Assembly: GCA_002633005.1 (NCBI GenBank)
Contig: NMRA01000335.1
Location: 62,001 to 126,000, forward strand
Direction of reading: 5' to 3'
Source: Phoronis australis
Lineage: Eukaryota; Animalia; Phoronida
Length of the DNA: 64,000 bases
The position numbers were made by a program, and so were the translations under genes. Under the pieces are notes generated by a model. That model did not search any database. It was not told the DNA's origin and was given only the letters and a program-made list of their open reading frames with translations. Each line of letters opens with the position of its first letter. Position 1 is the first letter of the stretch. Below are positions 381-64,000 of the stretch, in pieces.

Positions 381-1024
381 GTACTTGTAATGCAAGACAA
401 CCCCTTGTACGAACCAAGCGACAACAAGGACAGCTTACCAGTGAGAGCGCCTGTTATGATGGTAGGCTTTTTCCAAGGACGCAACGAAGTAAAAGTTGTG
501 GGTGAAATTACCAGTCCTCTTGTCATCACACATAAACTCTTTGACGGCGTACCCTCAGCTGACGCCAACAAAACTAACGGATCGCGATGCCATCCCTCCG
601 CTGATGACCCAAAGAAAATGGTTGTCCACCAATTTGTTATTCCTAAAAATTCATCGTTTCACATTAAAGTCTCTGAGTGTCTGTATGCTAATAAGGTTTC
701 AAGGAACTATAATGTCACGACCGGAAACTCCTCTACCTTCTCGTCGACAACATCTTCAGAGACAACCACTCAGCACCTCGGGCGGACCACGCCACATCCG
801 GAAGTTGAGCAAAATGATATTTTGTCAAAGTTATATGAACAATATCTCTGCTCAACGAAGTTCAGTGTGTATATCAAGCTCAACAAACGTGTGGAATATA
901 ATGACTTTGACTTTCATTGCCAGTTACCAATCAAGCCGCACAATTTGACTAAAGAAAATGATACGGACGCTCTGGTGAGGATAGATTTATGGACGTGTTT
1001 TCAATCGAATGTTGATATTCAAAG
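381..1024 (+). CDS. Gene A exon, GAIN region with Ser/Thr-rich loop
   Basis: ttag|GTA CTT GTA ATG ... AG|gtaatg; homologous to 58784-58147 (KKMxVH, YLCS, VxxKLNxRVE, DFHC, DLxTCF). Confidence 0.88.
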
Positions 1025-43100: not shown

Positions 43101-46100
43101 GGACAAAGATTTCAACTTCCTGCGAAACCGTACAGCAACGTTTTTTGTCTTGAAATAAAAAGGGAGACATATATAGTGTTTACTTTCTGGTCAATCCTGG
43201 TAATGTAACAACAAAACTTCAGCCTTACTATAAAGCTCTAGATAATGGCATGTGTTATGTGCATGTATGTTTCGTGATATCCTGTTATTAAATACGAAAT
43301 GATACGGGAATTCTCATCTAAAAAAAAACGTATGCCTTCAAAATGAGCTTTAAATATATTTTTTCTCTTGCAATGATTAAAACCTCTGCAAACCCACCTT
43401 CCGTCAAAGAAACACCCTTTGAAGTGAAATTTGCATCTTGTTCGAAACCTGTTCCTCAGTCAAAATAAAAATGATTTCTGGGTTTGGAAAAGACGACACT
43501 TTGTTACTGCTTTGAAGCCTGGTTCTACAAATTTACCCGTCAGTGCGTTTCAGTTTATTCGTCGAGTATGGTCTCAAGGAATAACGATCGAGCTGTCAGC
43601 TTTTTTCCAGGCTAAAAATCATTTCCAATCTGAGAAGGAACAACCGAGATCAATTTTTCAGCGATAAGTGTCTAACTCAAAAGTTAGCTTCCTCGATAGA
43701 ACACGGCTCATGTGCGCACCCAGCCTAAAAATTGGGGGGACTCGAATTTGTGAACAAGTGGACCTTTTACTAAAAAATACGGTTTAAGTTCAGAGCTGTG
43801 AATTGTGCATTCGTCTAATTTTGGTAGTTCCTGCCTTTTTAGTGGACTTTTGTCTCCCAAATAGAGGGGCTCGTTCGAGACAAGCCTCACCCCATTGGTG
43901 CGCACATGCGGCTTTATCGACACTTTAACTTATAATACACGACAGCTGTACACCAAATTGTTGCGAGTCAAAGTGATATTCAGTCGAGAATATAAGTGAT
44001 ACAGTTGTTTATTCAGTGATGGTACCAAAATCAAATCCCATTATTAAATGTAACTAGGAAAATACACTTCACAAATGCTAAGATTATCAACGTTCAGCAA
44101 CCAACAAGAAATACTGACAATAGTAACCAACTACCTCGTCCCACATGGCGACATTTTGCAAGTTCATGAATGCAGCCTTGTTCCTGCGGAAGGCCATGAG
44201 CGTCTCTGATGTCATGACTATCCTATAGACGTAGATTGCAAACGAGATAACCAGGAGCGAGGCCGTAGAGAATTCCATCAGATTCCAGAAATCCTAAAAG
44301 TTAAACAGCAAAAACTAGAGAAGGATTACGGAAGAATTCAAGAAAATAACTACGGTTTTAAAACTTGACATGTTTCGGTGTCATTTATTAAACACCATCC
44401 TCAGAAGTGATAATACAGTGGCCACCTATGACTTCTGAGGATGGTGTTTAATAAATGACACCGAAACATGTCAAGTTTTAAAACCGTAGTTATTTTCTTG
44501 AATTTATGCTGCTACTTGCTATCATGGAGATTACGGAGGACGTGAGATCGTTGTTAGCACTTATTTGTAGACAAGTGTTTCTAGAGATCGGAGATGCTTG
44601 ACTATAGAAGCAAATGTTTTGCACGACTTGGTGCATCTACGCGTAGCTTGACTATGCCTTGTTTTTTCACATGTGTACTAAGATTTTAAACAAATCTATG
44701 TATTTAGCAAATCTAACTCAGTGAAAAATACATCTTATCAAAGTGGAAAGCGAGTAGACTGTAGAACTGGTAGAACATCATTGTTTAGTTTCTTACATCA
44801 AGTTCATCAACCCCATTCTAATGTCACAAACGCACATGCAGAAGCCTGCTAAATAACGAATTTTAGACGGCGTTATAGGCATTATTTAACTCTGACTGTA
44901 ATTTATGTTCAGCGTTTTTGCGTTTCGTAGATGCAAGAATATCTCGGAGGAATCTTTTCTGACCAAGAGCTCCGCTAGTAAGCAGTAGAGGTCTGAATGC
45001 CGTTTCTCTAAAAGTCTATTGCCATTAATCTAAAAATCAGTCTACGGATGGCTTAGCCTGTATCATGAAACCGAGCTAAGGTTTATAGTAAAAAAAACGT
45101 CTACATCCGGAGACCAAAAGAGCAAAATCCGGCCTTATCCTACTCTGATGTTTGGTCAAAACAAGTCAAAAGACAAAAAATCGACTTAGGCAGTGAACCC
45201 TTCGAGAAACAGACCCCGGGCGTGTGTTCCACTGGCGCGAGAACCTCACGACAAAACAAGATCCGAAAAGACCTTGCGAGGTATTGCCATCTATTAAAGG
45301 ACAATGCCACCCAAAAACAACCTATTTTGTATCAGTTTAGATGAGTAGTTCCACTCGATAACAGCAAGTACAACTCTGTTACCTGACACCTGACAGCGGA
45401 CGGTGTTGAAATTAACCAACGACGTCAGAGGTTCGAACGAAGTTCGTTCAACAGTTCACAACGCATTTAATGGTGTCATTTTTTCGCTTGAGTTCATCGT
45501 TTTACACCAATAAATCGTCAAAATTCGATGTAGACCCTTACAAATACATCGAATTGTTGTTTCATTTCACTGTTACGGATTTTTAGGTATTTCAACGTAC
45601 CGTAGCCTTCAAAGTTCAGTAGGCCAATTTACCAAGGTCGGTCGCGGGCGGGAGTTTGGGGTCTGTTCGGTGATAAATTCGAATTATTCGTCTGTGAAAT
45701 ACCGACAGGAGACCATAGCTGTGTGCTGTAACTTTAGACTTGTGATTTTTTTCAGTTTTAAGCACACGAAACGCTTGCTACCCCGGCCAGTGGCTCGGAA
45801 TCCGTTCAGGCCCATCGCTGTTGGAGTGAAGGCATCGCGAACATAAACCAGTCAAAGTTGGGAACTAAACTTCCAGTCACGAAAATACTATACTAGTGAG
45901 CTAGAGAATTGATGTGCACATGATTGTTTTGGCAAATTAGCAGCGGAACTGCAAATCTACTTACTAGCTCGTCGGGGGGCCGCGAAGTCAGGTTACCCTT
46001 CCACAGTACCGTCAGGGCAAAAGTTGTACAGTAACAATCATTCGAATAATGTATATGAAAATCTAAATAAAGTTTCCCCTAATATCTGACAATACAGTAG

Positions 46101-49100
46101 GATACATACACAAAACGTACCGAGAGGGGCGCACATGAACTAATGTCCCACGAGACATTATTACGCGTATCGACCGAGACCGAATTTGTATTTATCCCAT
46201 ACGCTTCGAGTTGCTAAGTTTGTTTCATTTTTACGCAGATTTTTTAAATACTTCTCTCAGCTAGTTCACGTTGTGGATCACACCTTATGTGTGTTCTTGG
46301 GCATTAGGCTGCAAGTTTTCTCTAGTAAAAGAAGCAATTTTAAATGTGTTGAAAAGATATAACAAAGATGAAAACAAGGGTAACTTTTCATTGAGACCTG
46401 ATTGTATGTTGAGCGTTATTTACACTGCTACAAATGTATTACTTTAAACTATTTTCCGAAAATTTGTTGATCTAACCGGCTAAGTACGTCCAGTCGACAT
46501 TGGCCTACCTTTTGAACTTTCCGTAATACCTGTAATACCTGTCACGGACAGGATCATTGGGGATATGCTGGTGCATTAATCCCCTTTCCATGTCAGATGT
46601 CGCTGTTGAAGTAGAGCGGGAGGTGAATACGGAGAACTTTATTACATGGCCGTATTTCCCTCGACAGATTCAACGCGTATGGGATAAAAATTGAGTTATT
46701 GTTTCACAACAACTTTCTGTCAGCAACCACTGAATGAGCATGCGCTCACACGGCCTCGGTTTCCGGTCAATTAGTTTATTGCATCTAAAGCCGGTAACGC
46801 AGTGATTTATTCATTGCCGGCTTATAAAAACATTTGCACTCACGAAAACTCTAAGGCATTCCAAGTTGTATCTAATGAGGCAGACTTTGTTTCAATTTTA
46901 TATAAGTATTTGTTGGGGAGAGAATATTTCATTTTGAAACAGAACGCCCAATAATAAAAGAATAAACGTCAACGAGACACCTCGCAATCCCGACTTAGAC
47001 GAGTGCTCATCCGACGAAGACTTCACAGGTCGATCGTTATGTTTCACAGGTTATCAGTTCGAACCGGAATACACTGAACAAGAATAGGGAGGCTCCGTGA
47101 ACGAGCACAGATAACGGAACACATGGATAGTTCCGAAAACAGTTTGAATGACTTGTCATGGTGTCACAATAATGGAAACGACTGACGCTTGCGTTTGCTG
47201 CTACGAAATTCCGCAAGTGAAACGCCTTCTTGGAGAAGAGCATGTGTGTCTCACGACGATCCTCGCTTTTCACCGCACCTAAACAGAAGTATGCTTACGA
47301 CGTTCGGCTGAGAAAAAGAATTGGCGAAAACATCCTACACCCAGAGGACAAAACAGAAGCCTGACGAACAAGTCAGTCATCAAAAAGGTTATTTAAAACG
47401 TTATGTTTTAACGCCTTGAATTAATTGTAATTGTTCATGTTTTCATGGCCAACTACAATTCTCCATTATCAAAAAGTAATCAACAGCCGACGATCCGCGT
47501 TTCTTTGTCTCTTGCCTGTCGAACGCAAACACACTAGGAACAACAGCTGACTTTAGACTCAGTCTCTTTTTCTGCCCTGCCATGAGCTGCTTGGGAAGCC
47601 GGCATTCGATTGTAAGTGAAATCACTGTCGACGAAATGCCGGACATTGAAAGACACGGAGAAGTTTCACGCCCTCATACTTGGTACTAACGGCGTAGTTT
47701 TCATTCTTCACTACCGCGAGCCACTTCCGAAGCATTATGGCTCTCGAGGAAATAGAAAAAAAGATATAACCGCTTTCCTCAAAGCTTCATAGTTCACACA
47801 AGCGGGAGCGATACACCACACCATAGCGGCACTCACTCTGCAGAAGAACCACTGACGTCGTTGCGACGTTTCTCACCATCCTCACATGTTAACGCGACAC
47901 CTCTCGGCCAGGTAAGACCCACCGTATACTGTACGAGGTGATGTGAATATAGACCGATTAAGACCGTAAAAAATTAAATCGGGTGGCATTCTCCATTAAA
48001 AGCGAAGAAGGTGATCACGCTTTATCCCTTTGCGATAGTCGTGCGTCTAGGGAACTTCTTTGAGTACTTACTTGGAAGTAGTCACATCTGAGTTTCTTAA
48101 TTTTCTTAATTTCAACCACCACGAAGTATATTGTGAATAAGTAGGTGATGCACTCGGCAATGATTACGACCAGGAACAGAGAGCCAGCATACCGGTCAAG
48201 CCGCAAAATGTACACCCCATATTTCGGGTAAATACCTGCAAAATAAGTTAAAGTTAGCGTTTCCGTTTACCAGTAAATACTAGTATTTTACAGGATATTT
48301 TTATGTAGGCCCATAATTTTGTATTTCTGCCGGTCTCTGGAACAGGCAAAATATTTTGAGTACTTACATTAAAGAAAACTAATCTAGCACGAGCCAATTA
48401 AATATTGCAAATTTTGGGCAGTTGTTTCCCCTCAGACAATTAACCGCTGAACCAAAGACCTTTTGGCCCGAAGTTCAAAGGATTCGCCTGATGTATGACA
48501 GACGCGAGCAGAGTGTCAGCAGCCACCACACCAGTCGACTGGTGAGGCCAATGCTCACGCTGGAAAGTTTAATAGGAAGTAAAATAAAAGCACACACCTC
48601 CCGTTGCATCAAACTCGAACAGAATCTGTGATACCGCATGCAGATTGAGAGCAGCGTTGTAAAGATTAAACTCTATGAAGACAGCCCGCGTATTTCTGTC
48701 AACCCAGTTGGTTTCCTTCAGATAACTTATTAAGTCCTCTCCCTTTTTACTGTTCATGGTCAAGTCAACAATATAACCACCACCACTGTACGTTGCTAGT
48801 AAACCGTGTTTAACAATCCCACCAAGGTCTTTGGCAGACTGCCAAAGCCAAGCTGTGTTATTTTCCCATGAAGAGGCATCTGAAATATGGAAAGATCATC
48901 AGACTACTTTCCAAACTTAAAGGTGGTGAATAGCGATCGCAAACGTTACATGTATACACATGGAAATTCTTAGATATCCAGCAGTTAAAGCACTGTGCAA
49001 AAGTCGTGCGGGTGTGATGTAAATGATAATTTCTCAACTTGACGACCTCATTTCTTCTCCATTTTATCACATATTCACTGATTTTGTTGGTAGTCTTAAC

Positions 49101-52100
49101 AGACAAGGAACACAAGACTCTGTTGGCACTGCTAAAACGACTTCTGCTATTCGAGGTGTCATACATGTATATTAAATGCCCATTAGTGCCTGCATAGAAG
49201 GTTGTTTGAAGGCCACAGTTATTAATTGGCACTTTAAAGATGATCTCGTTGGCACTGCATATCGAAGTACAGAAGCTGTTTTAACGTCAGTAGGTGAGAT
49301 GCATTTGGATGCCTAAGCGATATTAGAATACTGAATGAACTTTGCGATAGTAAGGGAGCAGGTCTGTTCCAGGTGAGAAAGAATTTAACACAAATGGCGC
49401 ATGTAAACACAATATGTTACGGAGCATCTTGGCATGGTGATACAAGTGAAACCACATTTTTGCTACAAGTCAGGACGCACTGGAATTTTTCAAGATGAGC
49501 TTTCTCCGGAAATAACTGGCCGGAAGATCCGGAACCAGCCGAGGTAAATGTTGATGTGTCACGCCCGCCAACTTGCTTTCAGTAGACTCAGTCTAACCAA
49601 TCGAAACGCACTATACTGTACATGCATTAGGTGTGAAATGTCTGTATCGTACCAGTGGCGTTCCTCTGTTGCCAGTTGCTGTTGTAAAGTTCGTGGTCTT
49701 CGCTGTTAAAATGGTAATGTGCGCGACAACCTTGTGGTGCAAAGTAATAGTCCAGCAGCTCGCTACATGTTTCTGAAAAGTAATTAGGAAATATATGGAA
49801 GTTAAATGACCAACAAACTCACTCGAGACTCAATTCGAAAATTAACCAATCACATCGCAGGGTGACACACTCACCTACATCATAGTCTTGTCTGCAATAA
49901 AAATTGGAGTTAATATACTCTTCTCTTCACATTCGCCAATTTAGAAACACAGGGCGAGTTTTGTCAGTCGAAAGATATAAATTAAAAAACATTTCGAAAC
50001 GTCTAGCCCTCTTTGTGTTTGCCTTATTTTACTATAACTGTTTAAGTGTTTTTCGAAAGTGGGCGGGGTAACCAAGGAAATCGCATTATACATGACGGCA
50101 TCAGTCAGATGTCCACATCTACCGTGGTCATTTTGCAGATGCACTGCCAAAGCAGAAAGTACAAATATATAGATATTGACAGCTTCTTATTTAATTTGAA
50201 CTTTTCTTATCTAGTAAAAATTTGCTTTTCAAGGACAAAAATGGGGACACCCACATAAATATATGTGTTTCTACGTAAAATATGATTATAGGTGGGTACA
50301 CCTGTCAGTAAATGTTGATCAGCGAAGTCTCTCTTTGTAACTGGGTACACCAAAGTCGGGATGGGTCCATCTAATAACTGGACTCGACGTGACGGGTCCA
50401 GTTATATTCATATAGCGTGAACCGCTGTGATGGGTCTGTCTATATAAATATAACTGGACCCGACGTGACGGGAATGCATTACCGTTTACGACCCTGACTT
50501 GTCTCAATCTCGGCCCTCCCATCATGAAGCTATGACGGTCGCTCGTGAAGTTCTTGGAAAAAGCATACACTTTTCCATCATACCACGCCCCAGAGTAAAA
50601 TCCAGGCACAAATGTGGATTGCAGATACTTCCAAAACTGGTTGTAGTCGGATACCTTTGTTTAAGAAAACGGAATAGAACTTAAAAACCAACACGAGATA
50701 TGTGAATCTTCAACTATTTACTTTAATTGCGGTACATGTCGCAAACATTCAATGACGTTGTTCGTGTTGTGCTGGCACGAGGGTGGCGTTCAGCTGGCCA
50801 GTTTGCTATGTTTCGAGTAGAACCGACTGAGTTTAAAAAGGCGAAAGGCGCATTATTTCTGGTGGAATTGTTCGAATATCACACGAAGCCACGGTTCAAA
50901 TTTGATGACGTACTGAGCGCAAAAAATCTTAGTAATCATACATCCCTAAAATTCCAGTACAGTTAAACTGCCATCGAGGATGATCATTGTTCAGCAAAAT
51001 AGGTCTACCTTGTCTTTACGCTGCTAGTTACAGAAGTGTATCTGAGGTTTTTTCAGGCATTTTAGCCCAAAGGCTTCCTATGCCAAGAACAAAAAACGCC
51101 AACATTCCTTATGGAAAAAAACCCAGTTTTTGAGAGTTTTAACGCAAATAATCTTTTTGTGGGATATTTAGCTTCAACAGAAGTCTCATTTTTGACAAAA
51201 TATAATAATATGAAAACGACTATAAGGAGTATTGCTTTTGTGCAACAAATGATATTCTGTGGTCATCAAAAAATTTAAAACATATAATTCTTATGGGTCA
51301 ACTATGAAGAGTTTAAAAGTTATTTAGAGATGCTAACGAAAGTGTCATAACACCTTATCGACACATTGTCCTGTACACGTAAGTGATCAACAAGGGCCAA
51401 CATTGCTCAACTGTCAACTACACGTAGGCGTGTCAGAGTGGCAATGTGGATAACTACGCACAATACGAAAGAAACATATGCACATGACACGTTCAAAACC
51501 TCAAAGCACGATTTAGTACAGTAATCATAAAAAACTAACAAATGATCATTACCGTGTCTATGTCAACAGGAGAGTCTCCGAAATCCCCCGTTTTGAAGGC
51601 TAACGAAAATGTTCGACGAAACCCGTATGACCACGGGTCTTTGTTACCGTAAGAAACCATTACTAGCAGATACAGGAAAATCGCGTATCGAACTATTTCG
51701 ACAAGAAGAACATTCATTTCCGATTCCTTGTTTCTGGAACAAATAATTAAACAGCTTATAAATTGTCCGTGGAAATTGTAAATTCAAAAAAGCTTTGGGT
51801 TTTCTTTCAAGTTGTTCTACGACTGTCAAATTACCAAACTCCAACGGGAAATAATGTAGTAAATGGCCATTGTCCTTCATCCGATTCACGGTGGGCACAA
51901 AACCCCCAATTCTTTTGTAGTCGTAACAAATTAGCTAGCGTGCGCGCCTGGTCAAATTTCAAACTTTGGGCTCGCTCAGAACTCCTCTATGAAGGATGCA
52001 TCTGATCAATTCTGGACATGCGCGCGTGCACTTTTATTAGACTGCCGAGGGGAAACAATAAACACATTTTAAATGTATTATTTTCATTTGTGATAAAGTC

Positions 52101-55100
52101 AAATCCCACTTTTTCAGCCTAGCCGCCCTGAGCGTTTCCTCGTCGAGCTGCATTGGGGCGTTCTGGTACTGAGCATACTTCCGGTGCCAGGACATGTTTC
52201 CGTCAGAGCGCTCTTTCACAGTAGGAGGTGGGTTGATGTCAGGTTCATCCTCTACCACAGGCGCCTTAATTACCAGGGCGTAGAATATAGCCAGTAGAAG
52301 CACCTAAAGTAGCGGGCAACAAATACACGATAAACCTAATCCCAGTCACATTTCTTTGCGCAATATTTGCGATTTTGTTAAGATTAAAATAATGCATTCT
52401 TCGTGAGATAGTAAGAACGAACCAGAGGCATGAATTATGTATTGACTGATGTTCGTTCACGTGCATCAACTACTTTACGAGGAATGTTTTGCTAACGATG
52501 GAACAACGCGCTTTCAAGTCAGAATAAAAGTAATCTGTTCTAGGATTGAATGTAAACTACGCTACAATTAGATTGAAAAGATACCTTACGATAGACAAAC
52601 CTCTGAAATCTGCGTCAAGTTTGAGAACACCTTACACGTCTACAAGTCAGTAATCGTGACAACTATTTTCGGCGAATTAACCAACAGCTGTTGCGAAACA
52701 ACTCCCACTTCGAACTACACAATAGTAAAGTCTTTTGAGCAGAAGAAAGCTTTTGCTTCCCAGTGGAAGTATAACGTGTACATCAAGTGACCAAATACCC
52801 TTTATCAAAGCCTCACCTGCGGAATAAGTGTTACTGTGTTGGCTCCAATGTGCCTGTATGCGTTTAGACGCTTGTCGTATACATATCATACGGAAATTCT
52901 ATATAAATCTGTTTGGTGTTCATTTGAATCCTGCACAGTCACTTTAAAGGATGCTGGTGTATAGCAATGACAGTGTTGAGAAGCAACAGCGGTCTAATGG
53001 AACGGGAAAACTAACCTTAATTGGTTGCGCGAGTAAGATGTCTTGCAAACAGGACACGACAAAAGACAGCATCCATTTATTAGATTTTGCAGCCCCGAAA
53101 ACTCCCCCGACTTCCACTGTGTAATAAAAAGCAGCGCCACATGTTGCAAAGCAGAGAAAATATGCAATGTAGTTGCACCAATGAGGGAAGCGGATCTTCT
53201 TTTTTTTCTCTCGAGGTTCTTCATAATCGACAAATTCAGGCCAATTCTCTCTGGGCTCTTTAACGTCATAGCCGTAACTATAGTCGTAGAACCTGGTTGG
53301 AAAATCTAGCATGTAGCGCGCTTGTCGGAGTTCTTTTATGGTTGTATTTTTAGGTCTCTTTACCACAGGCTTTTTCAATAGGTCTTCAGTTTCCTTGTCT
53401 GACTTTGTCTTCGAGGACTTTGAATATCTGAATATCTGAATAATTAGTAAGTTAATGGGAAACACAATCAAACTGCTGTATATTCCAGTGATGATTTCAG
53501 GGAACGAGACAGTTATCGGTCCTACAACAAACGAAGTTCCAGGTGCGGATCCGTCGTCGGCATCGTAGAATAAGATGTTGGCTAACATTGCGCTGAATAG
53601 CAGCGACACACAGCAAGTCAGGCGTTGGACTCGAGTAAAACAGCTACGCGTCGGTCGCGTTTTTACAGAAACCCATAAATGGCCGTCGAAGAAATCTTTC
53701 CTTGCTTTATTCCAGAACAAATGGTTGAAGTCTGTCAAATCATCTATTCCAGCCAACGCGACCATTCTGTCAATCTAAAGTATACGAAAATGCCAATATT
53801 CGTTTTTGGTAAAGTAAATTTATTCGCAAAATGTTACCGGTCGAAGAAATCGGTAATCATCTGTCGTAAGGAACATACTTCACCGACAGCTGGTATCTAG
53901 TGAAGATCAACTAGGTCTGCATTAACAGTTTTGCCGAATCTGGATATCATTTAAGGATCATATGTAACCTTAATCACTCCATAAACGTATAAGGATTTCT
54001 TGTACAATTGGTGTCATAGTTCAAAACGGAAAGATTTGTAATAAAGTGAAAGAAATAAGGTTAAAACTGGCGCTGAATAAGTTAAGCAAGTGTGTGGACT
54101 TGCAACAAAAACACTAGTTTATCCTTCCGTTGTTTGAGCGATCATGACCAATGTGGCGAGTCCACTGTCCGAGAATCTTGTGTGTTTGGTCGCAGTGTTC
54201 CCACGTGGATTATCTTCTGAAAGAACTGCAGAGTTGATGGAATGAATTTATCAAAGGCAGTTAATAATAAACATTACCCGTCCGTCATCTTCCTCTACGG
54301 CAAGCCACTTATCAGCTATGAAGTAAAATTGCTGACCAGTTTGCAAATCCTGTACCACCAAGCGGCTGAAGAACCATGAAGGATCACTTCCTGAGTTATC
54401 GTGCCAAACCCTAGTAAAATGAATATCAAGCTACAGTTTAAATTCCCTTAATTTTACAATGGAATAGACGTAGATATACGATGTGTAAAGTTTACTTCAT
54501 TTTGGTAGCAATTTTATCTGCCATTTGAGTTTGTGATTATACTGTTGGAGGCGCAAGTATCGGTTTCCGATGTACGAAAGTAACAGTGTTGAGTGTAAGA
54601 TTACAGAAAACAATTGCCGAAGAGAGGTTTAGCAAGAAGAAAAATAAAATACAAGATGTTCCAACCTTATATGAGTGAGAAATCCAAGAGTGTATGGGAC
54701 GGCCATAATAAAGGAATCGATATTTCCACGTTGAAGAACCGGACGACTTTCATCCGTGATTTTCCGCGGCGGGGTCTCACTTAGCTCTCCGCATAATGTC
54801 ATCGACACAACGGAAGTTGTGCCAGAATGCGGTTTCGATCCAGTGTAAACATCTAGCTGGTACAAATACTTGTCCACTGGGTCGTTGTCCACCAAAAACG
54901 TGGAAGCAACCTGGAAGTAAAAATTGGTAATGTGACACTTTCTACATTTGGGTTGGTGAAAAATATGGACTACAGATACAAATCTGGGTTAGTGAAAAAT
55001 ATGGATTGCAGATACACATCTTCGGAGCCAGGCCTTAACATAAAACTTCTCGAATTTAACCTCTGCGATGCTAGATTAACAAGTCTTATATACCGAAACA

Positions 55101-58100
55101 AGAGACCTTACTGCACAATATGAAATATAAACTAAGCCACAGAAATCTCTACTTGGACATCCAATGTGCAGTTAGCTCAATAACACAGTAGAATCTCCTG
55201 GATTTTTTAGGAGTTCGTGTCTTGCAGCTGGTGGCGGTTATATTTATCTCATTGGATATACCATAGCAAAATCCGAAGGTACAACTTTTATATAGACCTT
55301 TACATGAATCAAGTTAGAGAATAAACTTTTAGTTAACTTGAAAATGGACTCAACCTTTACGGCGTCGTCTGCATCAGCTCTTCGTGCCCAAATCAGAATC
55401 ACTAGGTATAGGCAGATAATAGCAACCATCACGGCGAAGATGACCGGGTTAGAATCTAGCTTCAGAAACGCAGAGTCAGCCGGATTGATAGTATTTATTG
55501 GAACTGCCATACCACATCCGAACAAAGATGGCCGAGCCGATTTTGCAGGGGGGATTCTGTTCGGGTCGAAAGTAGGGGATTCTCTTCTCTTACGTTTAAG
55601 TCCAACGTCATTTGCTCGAACAAACATTCGATGGAACAGGCAATGGTTCCACGAGTCATTTGTGTAAGGACCAACCTGGAATACAAACAAAACTGCGCTG
55701 TATGATGGCATAAAGGGACCTCTGCTGTCATAAAAAGCCAACTATAAGTGCTGATGGCGACCATGACGACACTTGTGATCATAATGATGCAGATGATATT
55801 GATGGTTACAGTGATGACAATGATTATGGTGGTGATGTCAGCAACGGTATAGGAATGATGTTAACGGAAATGTAAATAAGCTCTGTGCGATCGACAAGAA
55901 GTACTGTCAAATCTTCTACGTACACGGCGGTTTTGACAACATTAATGGAGGATTGAGTTTCAATTACCTCTTCCAAATCTGTTGACTCCCACTTCCCTGT
56001 ACTTCCAGCAAGAGGATTAAACAACTTGCACTGAGATGTGACGACAGAAAACGTGTAAGTGCTGAGGTCGTCTTTTTCGCCACCTGCAAGATAACTTTAA
56101 TTTGTCGTTCCAGATGTCACCTTTCCACCTACGTGAACGCTCTAGAACTAAAACTTTGATTAGAGAGAGATATTACATGTCTATTCGTCTACTACATGCA
56201 TCATACTCCAAGCGCGCAGTTTACCATCCATTTGATTGTTCGTTTTATTTGTGAACGTCAGCGAGTTCTAAGGTATTTCGGAAACATACGTGGAGGGACA
56301 CTTTTCGAGATTTCACAAAGAAAAGGACATTTAGTGGCGATCATGTTAGTTTATGCTTTATAAAATTACGATGTTATATTTAAGCTGCTATGCTAGTTAA
56401 GTCTGAAAAAAGTTTATCTAGGTTTGGCAAAGTTCTGTCTAAGTTTGTCTGGTGTACTTTTGAAAAGTACTGTAAGCACTAATTGCTATAAATGCACCGG
56501 TAACTCTGTCTGCCCGTAAGATAACATACTTGGACGTAGAACGAATGTTCGTAACTGGTTGCGTTACGTAGTATGCTGTATAAAGTAGTACATACCGAAG
56601 ACCTGTTTGTATTTGTGGACCTAGCTGGCAACCCTACAGCCGCAAGAGAACACCATATGGACACATTGCATAACATTTGCAACCTAGTCAAAACACTATC
56701 TAGAGAAAATAAATATCGGAGAAGCTGTTGAAATCATGAGCAATAAATCCAAAATGATCAGGGACAGTGGATATGGATTACCAGCTATTTACCAGCGCCT
56801 GCTCACAAGTAACAGCCACCAGGTGGTGTTAGACAACCACCAAAGTGGTGACACGAAGATTACCGCCAGTACCCCAACGACGGGCCAAGGCGGACCCGAA
56901 AGGTAATGTCCTCAAACACAAACAGGTTGCCAAGTAAGTACTTTATTCTCCGACAAAATCGTATGAACGTATTCATGCAGACCTTCATTATTGGCGATCT
57001 TAAATACCAAAGGATCAAGTTTCGAAACAAATAAAAGAAAAATGCATATGAAAATTCCAGCCATAACGGTAACACTTTGCCAAAAACAAAAACCCTAATG
57101 ATAAAGTCACGGTCAAGGAGCTGTTATTAATAAGCTTTGCAAAAGTTTTATGTGCACTTGACGATAACAAAGTGTTACACTGATTTGTTCCGTTATAGTA
57201 GGATTTTCTCCGTCTCAGGTATAATCGCATGATGCCTGTAGTCTAACGCATTTAATCACTTCATAGGACTTCTTAGGACAATCAATATAGTCAAACCTGA
57301 AGTCGCACCGTCACTGCTCTGAACGCACGAAGAGGGTGGCTTCTTCACAATCACTCCAAAATTAACAGACACTCTACCATCAGGTCTAGCCAGTGACGTT
57401 TCCTCTAACTTTCTGTAAACGGCAAACATACGCATGCTCATTCCACATCTGCTCAGTCAGGCCAAATACCGTCTTTGCTCTCTATTTTCGTACATATACA
57501 CCAAACCAGTAATGGTAGTGCTGGCTAACCTTATTTATTGGCTCCATGATGTTATGTATCAGTATCGGGAATTTCCGCAAATAGGCCAATCCAAGAGTAT
57601 TTTTGGAAAAAAATCCAAAAGAGCACCCGTGAGATTTCTTCGGTGACGGTTTGCATGTTTTCATAATCTTAATTGTTCTAAAATACGTATGCATTATATT
57701 TGGATGTAAAATATGTTTATCTTGAATACACGTCCGTGGGCCTTTTTCCGAAATTTCCGGTAATTTTCAAAATGAAATAGTTTATTTAAGGGTACGCAAA
57801 GCAGTTACGGATGTTTAACGAGAAACGTGCGGTCCTTTTTGAAGGCTCAGAAATATGCAGCTGAAAACTGCAATTTATAAGTTTTAAATTGTTTTAAAAA
57901 CTTACTATTATAAATAATTGACCTGAAAAAAATACATGAAAATCAAGGTGCGAAAGTACCATTCTGCAAAAATTGAAACGCTTCTTCTTGCAAACATCGC
58001 TTGTTATAAACGTTGTTAACCTACACGCCGCACATTTGCTTATGGTTTTAAGCCAGGTACTCGTCATTTAAGCTGCTTGGACAGTAACTAGTACACGTTT

Positions 58101-61100
58101 GTTCACCAAAACCCTTTATTATGTGTGTTTAATTATCAGTACGAACCTGCGGATTTCATAGTTTGAGCGAAAGCACGTATACAGATCGGTGTTAAAGACG
58201 TCGTCCATCTTGGTCTCGTTCACTCCTGCCAGGTCACGTGGATTCAGAGGCAACTCGCAGTGAAAATCGTAATTATCGTGCTCCACACGCTCATTCAGTT
58301 TAACGAATACGTCGTAATGTTTAGAGCACAAATATTTCTTGTACAGCTGTGACAGTAAGCTCTCATTGGCAATTGAGATATTTAGATTCTGAGACGTCAA
58401 TGGTGAAGTGGTAAACGTCGGAGAAGCAGTCGAAGAGATATTTCCTGTTGTGTTCACGGATGCTGTTGTCTCGTTGGCTGTAGTATTAACGCAGTCCCCT
58501 AACTTGAGGTGGAATGATGTATTAGGCAGAATTTCAATGACATGAACAGTCATCTTTTTGACGTCATTCTGTCCCGTATAACATTGAACTCCGGTGAAAT
58601 TCACAGGTAAAATATTAACTGAAGGCTTTCTGTAAAACATCATCTCTAACGGAGGTTTAAGTCGGATCATTATCAGTGGATTTGCGTTGCCTTCCATCAG
58701 AGATACGAACACAGAGGGGGCTGTCATAGGCAACGTGTCGCCGCTATCGTCATCTATGGTTGGGCTAGGTTCCATTACCAACGTCTGAAACATAATGATT
58801 AGGGAAGTGCAATAGGAAATGAAATCAATTGGCAGCCTTCAAATCAAATGTATAAATAAAGAAAATGTACAATGAATCCAAAGTCATTTGTGTATGTTCT
58901 ACAAAAAAAAACTGCGGAAACTCAAACATAATTTTCCCTTCAACACTTCTTAAACTATTGGAGATTAGCAAACCACGCCCATGTAATAAAGTAAACCGTT
59001 ACTAAATGGCAAGAATATTGACCTATGAATGTCCTACCTAGTACTCATATGTCTACTCAACAACTTACAGCGACACTGGCAGAAGATGCGTTGGCGCTAA
59101 ATAGACTCTTGGCCGGAGGTAGTTTGAGGTGAGCACCAAAACCCACATCTATTTTGACTGCAAGGAAACGGAAACGGGGAAGTTCATACTGTGCCTTTCA
59201 TTACAAAAGGAAACAAACTGTCCCAGTTACATGTATTAACCAAGTACAATGTATAAACAGTTGCGGAGGTATGAGATAAAACTAGATCAATTATACAATT
59301 GAAAAACAGTGGGACCACGCTGGATCTATAGCGACCGCAAAGCCATACATTTTAATGAGTTTTCTGCAAGCCTCTGGTACATTTAACAACTGTGTGGTAT
59401 CAAATTTTACAAAAGATTATGGCAGTGCTCTCAAACGTACTACAGCACTGCATACAGTTCCAAGTACAGTTACCGACTTGCGAGTCTGGCGGTTCTCACG
59501 TGACACAGTACCATTTTCATCGAGTCTAATACGTATAGACGCACATGTAATTGGTTTAGCGTAATTTTGTTTGTCACGTTTCCGGATCGCGTGTCATGTA
59601 CACTATCTCAACGTCTTTTAATCTATTGTACGCAGATGAAACAATGTCACGCAACAACAACACGTAGACCATGAGTGGTTGTGTGACTCCAAAGACCGAT
59701 GGAGAGATAATAGCGACAGTTATCAGGAAGTGGGAAAACTCTGGCACAAATTGGCAACTTCCAAGTAAATGAAGGTCAAATACGCTAGCTTTAAAAATCT
59801 ACTGAACAAATTCGAAATTCCACAAAAGTGCAACTTAATATCCATTTCTTTTCGACTAGAATCCGTTTCAAGTCAAAGTCTCGAAGTATTGCTATACACA
59901 GGTGCTCAAAATGGCGACAACTTACTGCACTGGTCCACTTAAGGCTAAAAATTACACCTGTTGCGACTGAAAAAAACGAGACAGTGTAGAAATTGGTATA
60001 GTACTACTCTTTAAAATCTGTAAAAAGTATTTATTCAAAGCACTAGCTTTCTAGCCTAAGGAGCAGCTTTGGATCGGGGAAGACGTCGATAAATGGCACG
60101 AAACACTTTCTCATACCAACCTGTTTAAAACTACAAAGAAGAGGGGTCAGAGAAAACAAAAAGCCGGGAGAGGAAAGTGAAAAGGTTTCCCTGTGCCTAG
60201 ATTGTATCATAAACAAAGGCTAAGACCACAGATCCGTGTAATACAAAGCATAAACCATATGCCGGGATAGACTTGTTACACCAAATGACTTCACACATTT
60301 ACCCACTACCATTCGTGAGGCTACTATGCTAGCCGTCACGCCCTATTCGACTGACAAATCAATATTAATGCCCATTTTTCTCAATACAACACGTCTCAAC
60401 AGTTCCACTTTCATTTTCAATGCTATGGAAATATGGCTGCCTTGCTTAAGGGTGTCTCTAAAATGAGAAAACCTACAGAAGCAAGGGCAATTACATAAAC
60501 CTATACATGTACAGTGACATACTGTAATGAGTAACCTGGATGTTTAGTTCATGCGCATGTTCAGTGACGTAAAAGGCTCCTTTGATATTGAGGTCTTAAC
60601 AAATTTTTGCTGAATCCAGAACTATGAAACAACCAGATGTAAATCTGTCTTCTCAATGTTTTGATTCCTCAGTAGGTGTCAATACTGATGTACATGTGGG
60701 CCCGGTTGCATAAAAGTCTGTATAACTATCCGGCGTATAAGGGCTTATACGTCGGATAGCAAGTTTTATGCAACCGGACCCTGGCATTTTCACAGTTCTG
60801 GATTCAGTTTAAATAGAGTGGAGCTGAAGATCAAAGGAAGTGCCACCAAAACATTTACTGCCCACTTAAACAAGAGAAGAGCAAAAAACTTTGAAAATGT
60901 TTTTCCTACTGTTGTCTAAGTCTTCAGGAATCTTCTTCACGAGCGTCAATTTGGAGCTTTCAGTTTCGAGTTCCGCCTGCTTCTCACCAGCCACCGTGTT
61001 CAGGTCCATAGTTCTCATGACCACCGCTAGGACGTTTGAAATCTTTCGTGACTACAGGCACAACAAAGAATCCAAAATCAATTTTTTGAGTTTTGAAAAA

Positions 61101-63674
61101 TGTGACTACTTCTTATTTACATGCAAAAGAGTTAGTGTTCGACATAATCGTCAGCCATTTTTACTGCATCTCCCCGATGACGTGTGTGCGCTAGTGAACA
61201 TTGTGGCTCAGAATCTTAAAACAGCTTGTGAAAATGAGCCACCCGGGTTTTCCACAAATATACCCACAAATAGAGGCCCATGGGACAATACTCCGAACAC
61301 TATCATAGTAGGCCTTGATCAATGAAATGTTATTGACAGCTACACTATGAATGTTGTAAACGACAGTCGAACAGTGTTCAAGTTCACTCCACACCTACCC
61401 TACACACGGGCATTATTTTTGTACTGATAAGATTCTATAATCAACAAAGAAATTAAAAATATCAGTTTCATGGTCTATTAAAAAGGTTACTTAATAAATT
61501 TGATTTTTGACAAGGACGACAGCAAATTACCTCGAGGCACCCAGTGGCCTAGTTTTCTTATAACTAAAAAACTTTAATAGATGCATTCCAAGCAACTAAA
61601 AATGTTTACCACCAACGCTGCTTCCTTGCGAGTCGTACCCAGTCCGATGGAGTCACCGTTCTCGTTTTCTATATCTTCGCTCCCCGAAGTAGTTCCATCA
61701 CTTAAGCCTGCATTCACGTTGGTTTGCAATACTTTGGTCAATTGCCCTGTGAGAACGGTTGAATACACAAGTACGTTTATTTTTAATACAAATAAACGTA
61801 TTGATACATGCACGAAATCATTCGTTCCACACCACAGGTCGCTTTTTACTTTTTCCCGGCGCTTTCCATGTACAACAGATATTCTCGAGTAAAGCAGATT
61901 TGATCACGTGATTCGTCTGAATGGAGACATCTCGCAGATTTGCGTGATTTCACTTTTCTCACAAGAAACTTGTTTCACGGAACGCCACGGAATTGTAGAG
62001 AGTGTTGTCAACGGTAATTATGGCCAAATCTATATTGAAGGGAATGTTGCTCACGTACATGTATATTAGAAATACAACAGAATTGTACAGCAGAAATTCA
62101 AAATGACTTACTGTCATTGGTCGTGTTGCGAAGCAAAAGAACACAATTCAAACCCGTTATGAAACAACCCTCTGTCACAAATTTGCGATTTATGCCATAT
62201 ACGTCTTAAAAATGGTCTAAACCGTGTATTTTAAATAAGATCACGTGACTTTGGCTAGATTTTACCTAGGTCCTAGCGTAGGTCCTAGCGTAGGTCCTAG
62301 CGTTCCTGAACGCAAGCCTGGATTTGCAGGCTAAATTATATGCTTTGTACCCTATGATTAAATAACCATGGTTCAAAGGGGTGACCGTTCGCAAATCGTG
62401 GGCAAACGTGCAAAGATATTATTAAGCAAAATTCTAGTTATGCTTACAACTTCCTTAAAAGGCACCACAGAAAGGTTATTTTGTTGTTTTCAACAATGTT
62501 TCCATAGTGAGCAAAATTAATCGAAGAAGTTTGTTGGTGGATAAATTGTGAGATCGTAGAAGGTACGCAAATTACGGTTATCATGTTTTAAAATTCTACT
62601 TAGCAGCAATCAGTCCAACTTTCTTGAGCGCATGCGCTCATATACATTATTAGAGGCGGAGACTTTTAAACTCTATTGAGATGAAATAATTTATATTTTC
62701 TTTGTGTATCAAAAAATGAATCTGAGGAGATTTCTTATAGTAATTCTTGCGATATTCAAAGAGACTAACTCTCGCGGTAGCATCCCCAAGAAATAGATTA
62801 GCCACGTTATGTTCATTTTTGCGAATTTTCGCGTCCATGCACCTTAAACAAGTCGATAACAGAACGTGATACCACTTTCAAAGTTTTCAAGAAATAGGTA
62901 AACATCCTACAATCCTTCAAAGGGCCTTCCCTAATTCAATATTGGATTTTTAGTTTTGTATTAGATACATTTATGACATGAAATAAACGCACTACTGCTA
63001 CTGCTACTGCAATGGCAAAATTTGCAACAGTTTGTGAACTCTTATCTAGCATCCACGGCTTATCGCGTTTACCAATCCCTTGGTTTTAGGATTTATATCA
63101 TTTACCCCGTTTTGTCCACGGTGGCCTCAAATGTGATTGCCGTGGCCGCCAGCATCATAATTTAAGCCTAGCATATTGACTACCAGTGAGTTCTCCACTA
63201 ATTCAAAAGTCCGTACTTACTCGAGTATAGAACAAGTTGATTTCAGTTTTACGAAGGTAAATGGCCTCAATCAAAAAGTTAGACCAATGTTTAAAGGTGG
63301 GTTTTAAGTAACTGCATGACTTGACGTTTAACTCCAATCGCTGTTCAAAGATGGCAACCCAATAAAACTAGCAGGAGCAAACAGACACAGAACACCCAAC
63401 ATTTGCATTGCATTTCAGTACCTGTCATGGTTAAAATATTTTTTGCTTCGTCGACGTAGGTTGTGGAAGGAATTTCCTTTTTGTGCAGAAAGTGCGTCAT
63501 CGCGTTGGTCACGCTGTCCAGGTAATTCATAGACAACATCATTCCCTCGCTATTAACTTGATCGGATTTTCTTGTAAGAGTCTCAACATATGACAGAGTT
63601 TGCTGATATTGGTCGACTGTCTTCAGGTTGTCTTCCGTAAGATTTTTAAGAACCCGAAACAGATTCAATTTGGC
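36998..63674 (-). CDS. Gene B: polycystin-1-like protein (PKD1L/REJ family), paralog of gene A, 5'-partial, 22 exons: 63674-63422,61746-61610,61051-60910,59157-59069,58784-58147,57412-57297,56083-55968,55675-55355,54910-54666,54410-54278,53774-53016,52303-52110,51733-51553,50654-50483,49772-49653,48879-48598,48235-48072,44293-44135,41329-41074,39438-39175,38380-38204,37167-36998
   Basis: Phase-consistent GT-AG exons give ~1695 aa plus TGA with the same motif series as gene A (YQLDVYTG, RVWHDNSG, DGHLWVSV..CFTRVQRLTCC, GPRLRQVR, WVDRNTRAVFIEF, LKLLQFNKKM). Confidence 0.93.
37336..37935 (-). mobile_element. MITE (tttatcccatacgc TIR family)
   Basis: Reverse-complement homologue of 46190-46689. 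Confidence 0.75.
38204..38380 (-). CDS. Gene B penultimate exon, C-tail
   Basis: gtag|AT CAT ... A|gtaagc. Confidence 0.8.
38550..38800. repeat. Related subrepeat MITE-like element
   Basis: gaaggtttgatagtcc at left; ggactatcgaacctccgactatagaacct (reverse complement) at right. Confidence 0.5.
39175..39438 (-). CDS. Gene B exon, pore filter + TM11
   Basis: acag|AC AAA TTT GAC ... A|gtgcgt; 264 bp. Confidence 0.88.
39450..39610. repeat. Compound (CA)/(TA)/(CG) microsatellite next to a gene B acceptor
   Basis: Direct inspection. Confidence 0.95.
41074..41329 (-). CDS. Gene B exon, TM9-TM10 + pore helix
   Basis: ccag|ACT ... A|gtaagt; LKLLQFNKKM. Confidence 0.93.
41607..41988. mobile_element. 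MITE with ~35-bp TIRs starting GGGCCCGG (PIF/Harbinger-like termini)
   Basis: gggcccggtctccaatctttttactcgaaatgaa .. ttcgtttcgagtacaaagattagagaccgggccc. Confidence 0.75.
43709..43908. mobile_element. Small MITE-like element with 12-bp TIR catgtgcgcacc
   Basis: catgtgcgcacc .. ggtgcgcacatg. Confidence 0.5.
44135..44293 (-). CDS. Gene B exon, TM8
   Basis: ttag|GAT TTC TGG ... GAG|gtagtt. Confidence 0.92.
44362..44409 (-). ncRNA. Mirror copy of the hammerhead motif, in sense with the gene B pre-mRNA
   Basis: Left arm of the perfect inverted repeat; predicted cleavage after the C at minus-strand position 44367. Confidence 0.72.
44430..44477 (+). ncRNA. Minimal type I hammerhead ribozyme motif (Penelope-type)
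   Basis: gactt-CUGAGGA-u-[ggugu..acacc]-GAAA-CAUG-UC-aagtt; palindromic helix III ACAUGU. Confidence 0.72.
45298..47995. mobile_element. Kolobok-like DNA transposon (TTAA TSD) with THAP remnant (-) and KolX/P2X7-ballast-like remnant (+)
   Basis: ttaa|aggacaatgccaccc .. gggtggcattctcca|ttaa (13/15 TIR match). Minus 47823-47500: MVWCIAPAC..FFLFP..KWL..HF..LKSAVVPSVFAF. Plus ~47172-47280: METTDACVCCYEIPQV..VCLT. Confidence 0.82.
46190..46689 (+). mobile_element. MITE with TIR tttatcccatacgc..gcgtatgggataaa, nested in the Kolobok-like element
   Basis: 14-bp perfect TIRs; two further copies in the window. Confidence 0.8.
48072..48235 (-). CDS. Gene B exon, TM7
   Basis: gcag|GT ... CAA|gtaagt. 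Confidence 0.92.
48598..48879 (-). CDS. Gene B exon, TOP domain
   Basis: tcag|AT ... G|gtgtgt; YSGGGYIVDL, WVDRNTRAVFIEF. Confidence 0.94.
49653..49772 (-). CDS. Gene B exon, TOP domain (TCSELLDYYFAPQGCRAHY..)
   Basis: tcag|AA ... G|gtacg. Confidence 0.9.
50483..50654 (-). CDS. Gene B exon, TOP domain (MMGGPRLRQVR)
   Basis: aaag|GTA ... G|gtaatg. Confidence 0.9.
51553..51733 (-). CDS. Gene B exon, TM6
   Basis: ccag|A ... ACG|gtaatg. Confidence 0.92.
52110..52303 (-). CDS. Gene B exon, end of TM5 + loop
   Basis: ttag|GTG ... AA|gtggga. Confidence 0.9.
53016..53774 (-). CDS. Gene B exon, TM2-TM5
   Basis: ttag|ATT GAC ... AAG|gttagt. Confidence 0.95.
54278..54410 (-). CDS. Gene B exon, PLAT part 2
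   Basis: ctag|G GTT TGG CAC ... CGG|gtaatg. Confidence 0.92.
54666..54910 (-). CDS. Gene B exon, PLAT part 1
   Basis: ccag|GTT ... AG|gttgga. Confidence 0.92.
55355..55675 (-). CDS. Gene B exon, modified GPS end + stalk + TM1
   Basis: ccag|GTT GGT ... AAG|gttgag; NHCLFHRM..KRKRRE..SLFGCGMAVPINTI. Confidence 0.92.
55968..56083 (-). CDS. Gene B exon, start of GPS (SQCKLFNPLAGSTGKWESTDLEE)
   Basis: gcag|GT ... GAG|gtaatt. Confidence 0.88.
56700..56910 (+). mobile_element. Penelope-like element 3' remnant (end of GIY-YIG endonuclease)
   Basis: EAVEIMSNKSKMIRDSGYGLPAIYQRLL resembles the PLE consensus EAIxI..LNRDxG..LP..Y..LL; followed by a decayed hammerhead-like ggg..cccgaaag. Confidence 0.65.
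57297..57412 (-). CDS. Gene B exon, GAIN
   Basis: acag|A AAG ... G|gtttga. Confidence 0.85.
58147..58784 (-). CDS. Gene B exon, GAIN with Ser/Thr-rich loop
   Basis: tcag|ACG TTG GTA ATG ... AG|gttcgt. Confidence 0.9.
59069..59157 (-). CDS. Gene B exon, GAIN (KIDVGFGAHLKLPPAKSLF..)
   Basis: gcag|TC ... GCT|gtaagt; phases fit neighbours; no paralog exon in window to confirm. Confidence 0.7.
60698..60781. mobile_element. 84-bp palindromic MITE (GGGCCCGG termini) nested in an older inverted-repeat element (~60575-60840)
   Basis: ccggttgcataaaa..ctatccggcgtataag/cttatacgtcggatag..ttttatgcaaccgg; outer IR ctgaatccagaact/agttctggattcag. Confidence 0.7.
60910..61051 (-). CDS. Gene B exon, GAIN (SRKISNVLAVVMRTMDLNTVAGEKQAELETESSKLTLVKK..)
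   Basis: gtag|TCA ... A|gtagga; phases fit. Confidence 0.7.
61610..61746 (-). CDS. Gene B exon, GAIN helical subdomain
   Basis: acag|GG CAA ... GTG|gtaaac. Confidence 0.72.
62267..62302. repeat. 12-bp tandem repeat (taggtcctagcg) x3
   Basis: Direct inspection. Confidence 0.85.
63422..63674 (-). CDS. Gene B exon, GAIN helical subdomain (most 5' exon found in window)
   Basis: tcag|GCC AAA ... G|gtactg; amphipathic helical sequence. Confidence 0.75.
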
Positions 63675-64000
63675 CTGAAATGTAAAAATAACACTGCTTA
63701 TGATGTAACCAGTCGCTACCAAGATTAGAGATTTTCTTTCAACAGTGTTAACAAGTGTTGATATCAAAATAAACCTAATATATGAAATTAAAACTGCTGC
63801 CTTGTACACCTAATGGCAGCCCAATGTCTAGGCAATTACATCGCTCTAGATGCCGCAGGCATACAGGGGCGATAGTAAATCCCCACAAAAAGTTACAAAT
63901 TTCAAGGTACAGGAAACAGAATAAAATGAAACATGCATATATGCACATGGAGTTATAATTAACACATACCATAAGTCTGGAGACGATTCAGTCAAGATAA

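Follow-up and report, generated by a model that had tools for sequence, protein, structure and literature searches.

The window, by which we mean the whole stretch of 64,000 nucleotides analysed here, contains two convergent polycystin-1-like genes, gene A on the plus strand and gene B on the minus strand (Table 1). As judged from its encoded domains, gene B is a member of the polycystin-1-like (PKD1) family. Its C-terminal exons match the Pfam profiles Polycystin_dom (E 1.4e-26) and PKD_channel (E 4.5e-19), and a PLAT domain is recognized on the exon that follows the GPS-loop exon (Pfam E 3.7e-5, 24.8 bits at a cut-off of 23). The GAIN/GPS region before the first transmembrane segment (TM1) is matched by both halves of a canonical GPS profile (E 3.8e-6 and 5.1e-5), which we built from 124 canonical GPS motifs and used to place the residue at +1.

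The GPS-loop exon of gene B is bounded by a TTCCAG acceptor and a GT donor and contains the second half of the GPS, an inserted loop, the last GAIN strand, the stalk and TM1. Since the loop precedes TM1 and the cytoplasmic PLAT domain follows it, the loop is expected to be luminal or extracellular. In both genes the insert divides the match to the GPS profile in two, and the insert of gene B sits between the last two GAIN strands, where the H-L↓T motif (↓, scissile bond) is absent. Gene B reads R-M, insert, R-P↓S and thus lacks the His at −2 and the Leu at −1 of autoproteolytic GPS motifs; gene A reads R-L, insert, R-P↓T, with no His-Leu directly before +1. The short kinked turn held by two disulfides is likewise absent from gene B, in which the insert takes its place and the second and fourth GPS Cys are missing, a loss that is not diagnostic as it is also found in 51 of 153 canonical sequences. 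The exon carrying the first half of the GPS retains the first Cys and the Trp and has lost the second Cys along with its partner, the fourth. In gene B the profile match resumes at Leu51, one column past the +1 Thr column, which places Ser50 at +1. The preliminary description of this locus, which gave the exon peptide, the exon start and the position of K-R-K-R-R correctly, had held that gene B has no nucleophile at the canonical position; this has to be revised, as Ser50 occupies it and the loss concerns the His at −2 and the tight turn instead.

Table 1. Coordinates of the two polycystin-1-like genes and of the features around their GPS loops, numbered within the window.
Feature	Position	Strand	Basis or remark
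Gene B, polycystin-1-like	39200..64000	−	PLAT, Polycystin_dom and PKD_channel matches; 5' end probably beyond the window
Gene B, upstream GAIN subdomain-B exons (two)	58784-58147, 57412-57297	−	Open joined frame, homolog alignment; junctions predicted
Gene B, exon with first GPS half	55968..56083	−	Alignment; RNA depth at 55963-56055 in run X1
Gene B, GPS-loop exon (107 codons, phase 0)	55355..55675	−	Sequence; splice to PLAT exon in 3 reads
Gene B, 32-residue insert at GPS scissile bond (codons 18-49)	55529..55624	−	GPS profile; RNA depth ~2
Gene B, K-R-K-R-R in loop	55583..55597	−	Sequence; cut predicted after 55583, before Glu32
Gene B, Ser50, canonical +1 (nucleophile) position	55526..55528	−	GPS profile; preceded by Arg-Pro, not His-Leu
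Gene B, Cys54 in last GAIN strand	55514..55516	−	Unique to A and B among 205 sequences
Gene B, TM1	55385..55444	−	Sequence; cytoplasmic PLAT domain comes next
Gene B, PLAT-domain exons	54910-54666, 54410-54278	−	Pfam PLAT; junction in 7 reads
Gene A, polycystin-1-like paralog	381..25430	+	PLAT, Polycystin_dom, PKD_channel; convergent with gene B
Gene A, counterpart of GPS-loop exon	7158-7484	+	Exon-by-exon match to gene B
Gene A, 34-residue insert	7209-7310	+	GPS profile, alignment
Gene A, K-R-R-R-R	7236-7250	+	Sequence
Gene A, +1 Thr (Thr52)	7311-7313	+	+1 Thr column of GPS profile

Transcription was assessed in three RNA runs of the same species (X1, X2 and X3), each read to 18–19%. The exons of gene B are covered at low depth by reads of a single orientation, as would be expected if the library was stranded and the transcript came from the minus strand, and read joints match the predicted introns between the GPS-loop and PLAT exons and within the PLAT domain. 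Eleven reads fall on 55250-56150, with a depth of about 2 over 55529-55590 in X2 and X3, and none of these 11 shallow reads has a splice joint inside the GPS-loop exon; given the low depth, there may be a minor transcript form from which the loop is spliced out. The possibility that the loop is an unspliced intron or an annotation artefact was ruled out, as it is in frame, covered by RNA and contained in RefSeq models of other species. The homolog P0024 is encoded on a contig of 11,646 bases that is almost all coding, which also counts against the loop as an intron.

Several other elements lie in the window. A THAP-domain ORF (6406-6651, minus strand, within about 5800-6700; Pfam E 1.1e-5) occupies the intron of gene A just before the GPS exon and is probably transposon-derived, and a Tc3-type transposase fragment (12980-13243, plus strand; Pfam E 7.4e-10) lies in an intron of the same gene. 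Between genes A and B, broken ORFs (27192-27839, minus strand) have by eye the look of retroelement remnants and gave no Pfam match, and an inverted pair of related non-coding segments (29720-29998 and 37247-37586) separates the 3' ends of the two genes. Many reads that derive from other parts of the transcriptome pile up, on both strands, on short intronic repeats in gene B (62220-62320 and 63830-63980).

Inserts at the GPS across the polycystin-1-like family

The last GAIN strand was located in 205 of 243 sequences (241 homologs plus genes A and B); the remaining 38 were left out because they were fragments or scored too low. The canonical motif H-(L/M/F/T)↓T/S was present in 170 of the 205, and 15, genes A and B included, carry a complete insert of 27–37 residues at the GPS scissile bond. 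The other classes comprise three fragments that start inside the insert, 14 motif-less sequences with 1–4 extra residues and three unresolved cases. None of 18 insert-bearing sequences has His at −2, and 14 of the 18 have no Ser or Thr at +1.

Furin recognizes the consensus R-x-K/R-R, which is fitted by both R-K-R-R↓E-S of gene B and R-R-R-R↓E-N of gene A. This motif is present in nine of the 15 complete inserts, seven of them among the 13 from outside the window (P0024, P0043, Amphiura P0046, Antedon P0048 and P0140, Anneissia P0075 and P0132), and in two of the three insert fragments. In the nine inserts it is placed 8–20 residues before the last strand, always with loss of H-L↓T, and is mostly followed by S-T, S-V or S-I. 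As background, 11 of 1044 tiles of 32 residues taken from within 300 residues before the GPS in 116 proteins contain the motif; a harsher background, restricted to polar ectodomain tiles, gave ten of 181. Shuffling yielded P values of 0.003–0.04 for the motif in five of seven homologs, in which the surrounding loops are acidic or rich in Ser/Thr.

Gene B might alternatively encode a polycystin-1-like receptor that is not cleaved at all, in which the loop is tolerated and the basic run is incidental or serves as a binding patch (e.g. for glycans or lipids). We regard this as unlikely, although it accounts well for the six of 15 inserts that lack R-x-K/R-R (Lingula P0026, P0038, Pinctada P0227, Sanderia P0198, P0072 and P0084, the last with a minimal R-x-x-R only); these inserts, taken with the 14 sequences that lose H-L↓T with short inserts, indicate that the family tolerates uncleavable forms. 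It would also suit the frequency with which shuffling the residues of the loop itself yields the motif (19% for gene B and 10% for gene A), and there are passages in PMC9672506 in which PKD1L1 and PKDREJ are described without GPS cleavage. Against a non-cleaved receptor stand the strong enrichment of the motif over background, which holds even when counted per origin (strict motif in at least three of six origins, P 0.003 with the harsher background), the occurrence of an ordered R-x-K/R-R, often followed by Ser, in loops that are otherwise acidic or Ser/Thr-rich, and the retention of the site in A and B despite synonymous saturation. Loss of the motif among relatives, named in the preliminary description as a sign against selection on the site, is in part what the loops of P0038, Lingula and Pinctada display. 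P0038 belongs to the same starred clade of our tree as A and B.

A second alternative accepts the furin cut but treats it as ordinary ectodomain processing, such as may occur in other GAIN loops of invertebrate polycystins, with no takeover of the function of GPS cleavage. R-x-K/R-R sites do occur elsewhere in the GAIN region in ten of 116 proteins, among them four from cnidarians in which H-L↓T is intact and the motif lies in another loop of GAIN-B, and they are found also in some amphioxus and tunicate proteins. We nevertheless consider this explanation quite improbable, as nine sites lie in the one loop whose cutting would recreate the two-fragment layout, in each case with H-L↓T lost.

For replacement of self-cleavage by a furin site, the number of origins of the insert matters, and this was addressed with a tree of 40 proteins chosen from 136 that were long enough (FastTree pre-screen), calculated from the region downstream of the loop with the loop left out. 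The insert state needs six changes on this tree, and the starred branches force at least four. A single origin with simple descent was ruled out, as none of 200 bootstrap trees had one change, and one clade uniting the window clade, the crinoid clade and P0046 (nine rows) was rejected by the AU test (p 3e-12) on a quick LG+G4 tree. The upstream region, noisy and with long branches, agrees weakly with this rejection (p 0.03). Two loop forms are sister to canonical proteins, namely Lingula P0026 to P0001 (100/99) and Pinctada P0227 to Littorina P0150 (100/96); P0038 and P0024 fall in one clade with genes A and B (96/93). The tree by itself is blind to gain versus loss, and we infer that the changes were gains because repeated regain of an exact H-L-T is less likely. 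Tyr at −3 occurs in seven of 15 loop forms, which are of different origins, and in one of 170 canonical sequences; this counts against full independence and is explained either by convergence in structure or by remnants of common ancestry or of gene conversion. The swap from autoproteolysis to a convertase site probably arose several times. Tentatively, we suggest that an inserted furin site may have replaced GAIN self-cleavage independently in at least three animal lineages, with the fragments of A and B perhaps disulfide-linked.

Pfam GPS matches in three loop-bearing homologs end at profile position 38–40 of 45 and remain below the cut-off; none of five loop-bearing homologs passed it, compared with two of two canonical proteins, and the match of a sixth loop form is also short. 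That the insert drops these proteins below the cut-off may be why the loop form has gone unremarked. P0024, from the clade of A and B, has PKD repeats, REJ and a WSC domain (below cut-off), and by its features the region of a homolog matched GPS clusters in a protein atlas (0.90). A two-exon alignment search among longer proteins gave no match, and a metagenome scan yielded ten loci, none of which has a furin-type loop. In four of these loci (L004, L008, L009 and L010) the GPS is non-canonical and is interrupted by an intron immediately ahead of the last strand, and L008 contains an acidic, Thr-rich insert.

Other basic sites were noticed in the family. In the cnidarian proteins P0018, P0173, P0174 and P0175, all with intact H-L↓T, one or two R-x-K/R-R motifs lie about 74–103 residues before the GPS. 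In a Sanderia-like group (P0198, P0072, P0084, P0101 and P0104) the insert ends in a basic run with K-R or T-R before the last strand, and a cut at this position could leave a flush stalk. Lingula P0026, whose insert has no furin motif, carries in another GAIN insert a run R-R-L-L, which we take to resemble a site-1-protease motif.

Conservation of the basic site between genes A and B

Genes A and B correspond exon by exon, are 69% identical over 474 columns downstream of the loop and are sisters in the tree (100/100). Their alignment of 549 codons gives a pS of 0.74 and a pN of 0.22, so that the duplication must be old and synonymous sites near saturation. In both genes K-R-x-R-R-E occupies codons 27–32 of the exon, and D-x-N-x-I-P-P and A-R-P are common to A and B, as the preliminary description had reported; its further statement that the nine residues before the site share no identity is off by one residue (Val19). 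The proposal that the site predates the duplication is borne out by the same offset, the sister relationship and the pS value. At the site five of six residues are identical, and outside it ten of the other 26 loop residues are (P about 0.03); nine of 17 are identical between the genes over the 18 residues from the predicted cut to the stalk strand. With respect to purifying selection, which had also been proposed, the low pN of the site (0.07, compared with 0.38–0.58 in the flanks) agrees, although the comparison covers only six codons. Gene B had further been taken as independent support for gene A, which it is not, because the two paralogs inherited the site from one ancestor. Conservation between A and B alone is modest evidence; the strong evidence comes from other lineages, as crinoids, a brittle star and others provide support that is independent of the duplication.

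Conservation between the paralogs could also result from constraint on the DNA itself, e.g. from a purine-rich exonic splicing enhancer, which we hold to be highly improbable. Sixteen of 18 nucleotides in codons 27–32 are identical between A and B, and four of the five shared residues of the site use the same codon, as opposed to three of 19 Arg at other positions (P about 0.02). This test was chosen after the data had been seen and covers six codons only, and constraint on DNA does not explain why the same peptide motif recurs at different offsets in the unrelated loops of other lineages.

Predicted processing and structure of the gene B protein

GPS autoproteolysis requires a sharply kinked loop, a trapped Leu, a His as base and a Thr or Ser nucleophile, and the cleaved strand remains bound, according to passages of PMC3321182. 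Because both the His and the short kinked turn are gone from gene B, its autoproteolysis is presumably dead. We think it fairly probable that the self-cleavage motif of gene B has been replaced by the insert with its furin site, and that this site is cut by a Golgi proprotein convertase. The protein would then pass the ER uncut, and a furin-type convertase would cut after R-K-R-R in the late secretory pathway, to which cleavage would have moved from the ER. The product would be a two-fragment receptor whose N-terminal and membrane fragments are held together by the last GAIN strand and perhaps also by Cys54 of A and B. In the membrane fragment 18 extra residues would precede the stalk strand, and because of them a flush tethered agonist is not implied.

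We modelled 310 residues of the crinoid homolog P0075, rather than A or B, from an alignment of 40 rows. The model has a mean pLDDT of 79.8; loop residues 264–279 are below 50 and lack secondary structure, and there are strands on both sides. The two chains of 48,161 that match the model best are GAIN domains, from BAI3 (Z 7.9; rmsd 2.6; 89 aligned residues; model range 1–288, with the strand behind the loop included) and from Gpr126 (Z 7.4), followed at lower scores by CD97 and CELSR1, all with Z under 8 and so within the noise range of the tool. A Foldseek search of the model against the PDB returned only spurious viral capsid matches (rmsd about 20), and a sequence search of the PDB found no solved structure that covers a polycystin GPS loop. 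By this model, the loop is predicted to be disordered and the last strand to be still docked in the GAIN sandwich. Genes A and B share nine Cys in the GAIN region, of which five are private to them, one in the last strand and four upstream in GAIN-B; a disulfide between the N-terminal and membrane fragments through the last-strand Cys54 is possible.

Residual autoproteolysis, either at R-P↓S50 in gene B or at a BAI3-like R-L-S with which the loop of gene A begins, seems barely credible: the +1 residue is kept in both genes, and passages of PMC3321182 state that BAI3 has Arg for His and that endogenous BAI proteins are cleaved in brain, but gene B has Phe in place of the Ser of R-L-S in gene A, the trapped Leu at −1 is replaced by Pro, both genes lack one of the two disulfides that stabilize the turn, a loop of 32 residues is incompatible with the kinked turn, and most insert-bearing sequences lack Ser or Thr at +1.

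Comparison with known polycystins and other cleaved receptors

Among the open-access full texts searched, we found no description of a GPS insert with a convertase site. The portions covered of PMC1934368, PMC5318412, PMC11697300, PMC4890752, PMC12716839, PMC6992733, PMC13197933 and PMC12799467 do not contain the insert form, and the 2738 PKD1 GAIN models of PMC11697300 may include such forms. What is new here, as drawn from comparison of the sequences, is that a convertase site has probably taken the place of GAIN autoproteolysis, and has done so convergently.

The question why polycystin-1 and adhesion GPCRs cut themselves is long-standing, with an ER folding checkpoint, trafficking and a force-releasable ectodomain as possible answers. 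Natural variants in which the cut has moved to a Golgi protease would separate these options. A furin-type cut would be switchable by a furin inhibitor, in furin-deficient cells or through a single point mutation, all of which leave the GAIN fold intact, and grafting of the loop into a GPS-dead PKD1 would tell whether cutting there by any means restores function. From repeated origins one could read what is maintained by selection; if the replacement is real, this would be the division of the receptor into two fragments rather than its autocatalysis, and convertases would process some polycystins now classed as uncleavable. Mammalian PKDREJ, which may have a short basic insert at the GPS, is possibly one of them.

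Gene B resembles PKD1, PKD1L2, PKD1L3 and sea-urchin REJ3 in having GAIN/GPS, TM1, PLAT, Polycystin_dom and PKD_channel. Like the autoproteolytic polycystins, A and B keep the first and third Cys and the Trp of the GPS as well as the last strand; unlike them, they have no H-L↓T/S, carry at the scissile bond an insert of 32–34 residues with R-x-K/R-R, have lost the second and fourth GPS Cys and have gained a Cys in the last strand. The absence of the H-L↓T/S tripeptide is shared with two other members of the polycystin-1 family, PKD1L1 and PKDREJ, which, in contrast to our reading of gene B, are described as uncleaved in passages of PMC9672506 that mention no furin site.

Cleavage by another protease has precedents of different kinds. 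Protease sites placed before the stalk activate engineered adhesion GPCRs, in which thrombin or enterokinase acts as the outside protease that cuts there (passages of PMC9672506). These receptors are artificial, have the GAIN domain removed and expose the stalk flush, whereas gene B keeps the GAIN domain and would leave 18 extra residues before the stalk. Fibrocystin (PKHD1), a protein of the polycystin complex, has its ectodomain separated by a convertase, as stated in part of PMC6992733, which is similar to the processing proposed for gene B; fibrocystin is, however, unrelated to the gene B protein and has no GAIN domain. The closest functional analogy is the SEA domain, in which one loop is either self-cut or furin-cut: passages of PMC6954182 report that this loop undergoes autoproteolysis in MUC1, GPR110 and GPR116 and is cut by furin in human GPR126 and Notch, and that the fragments remain together. 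The SEA fold differs from that of GAIN, and GPR126 has its furin site in the SEA domain and retains GAIN autoproteolysis, whereas the swap in gene B would lie inside the GAIN domain itself.
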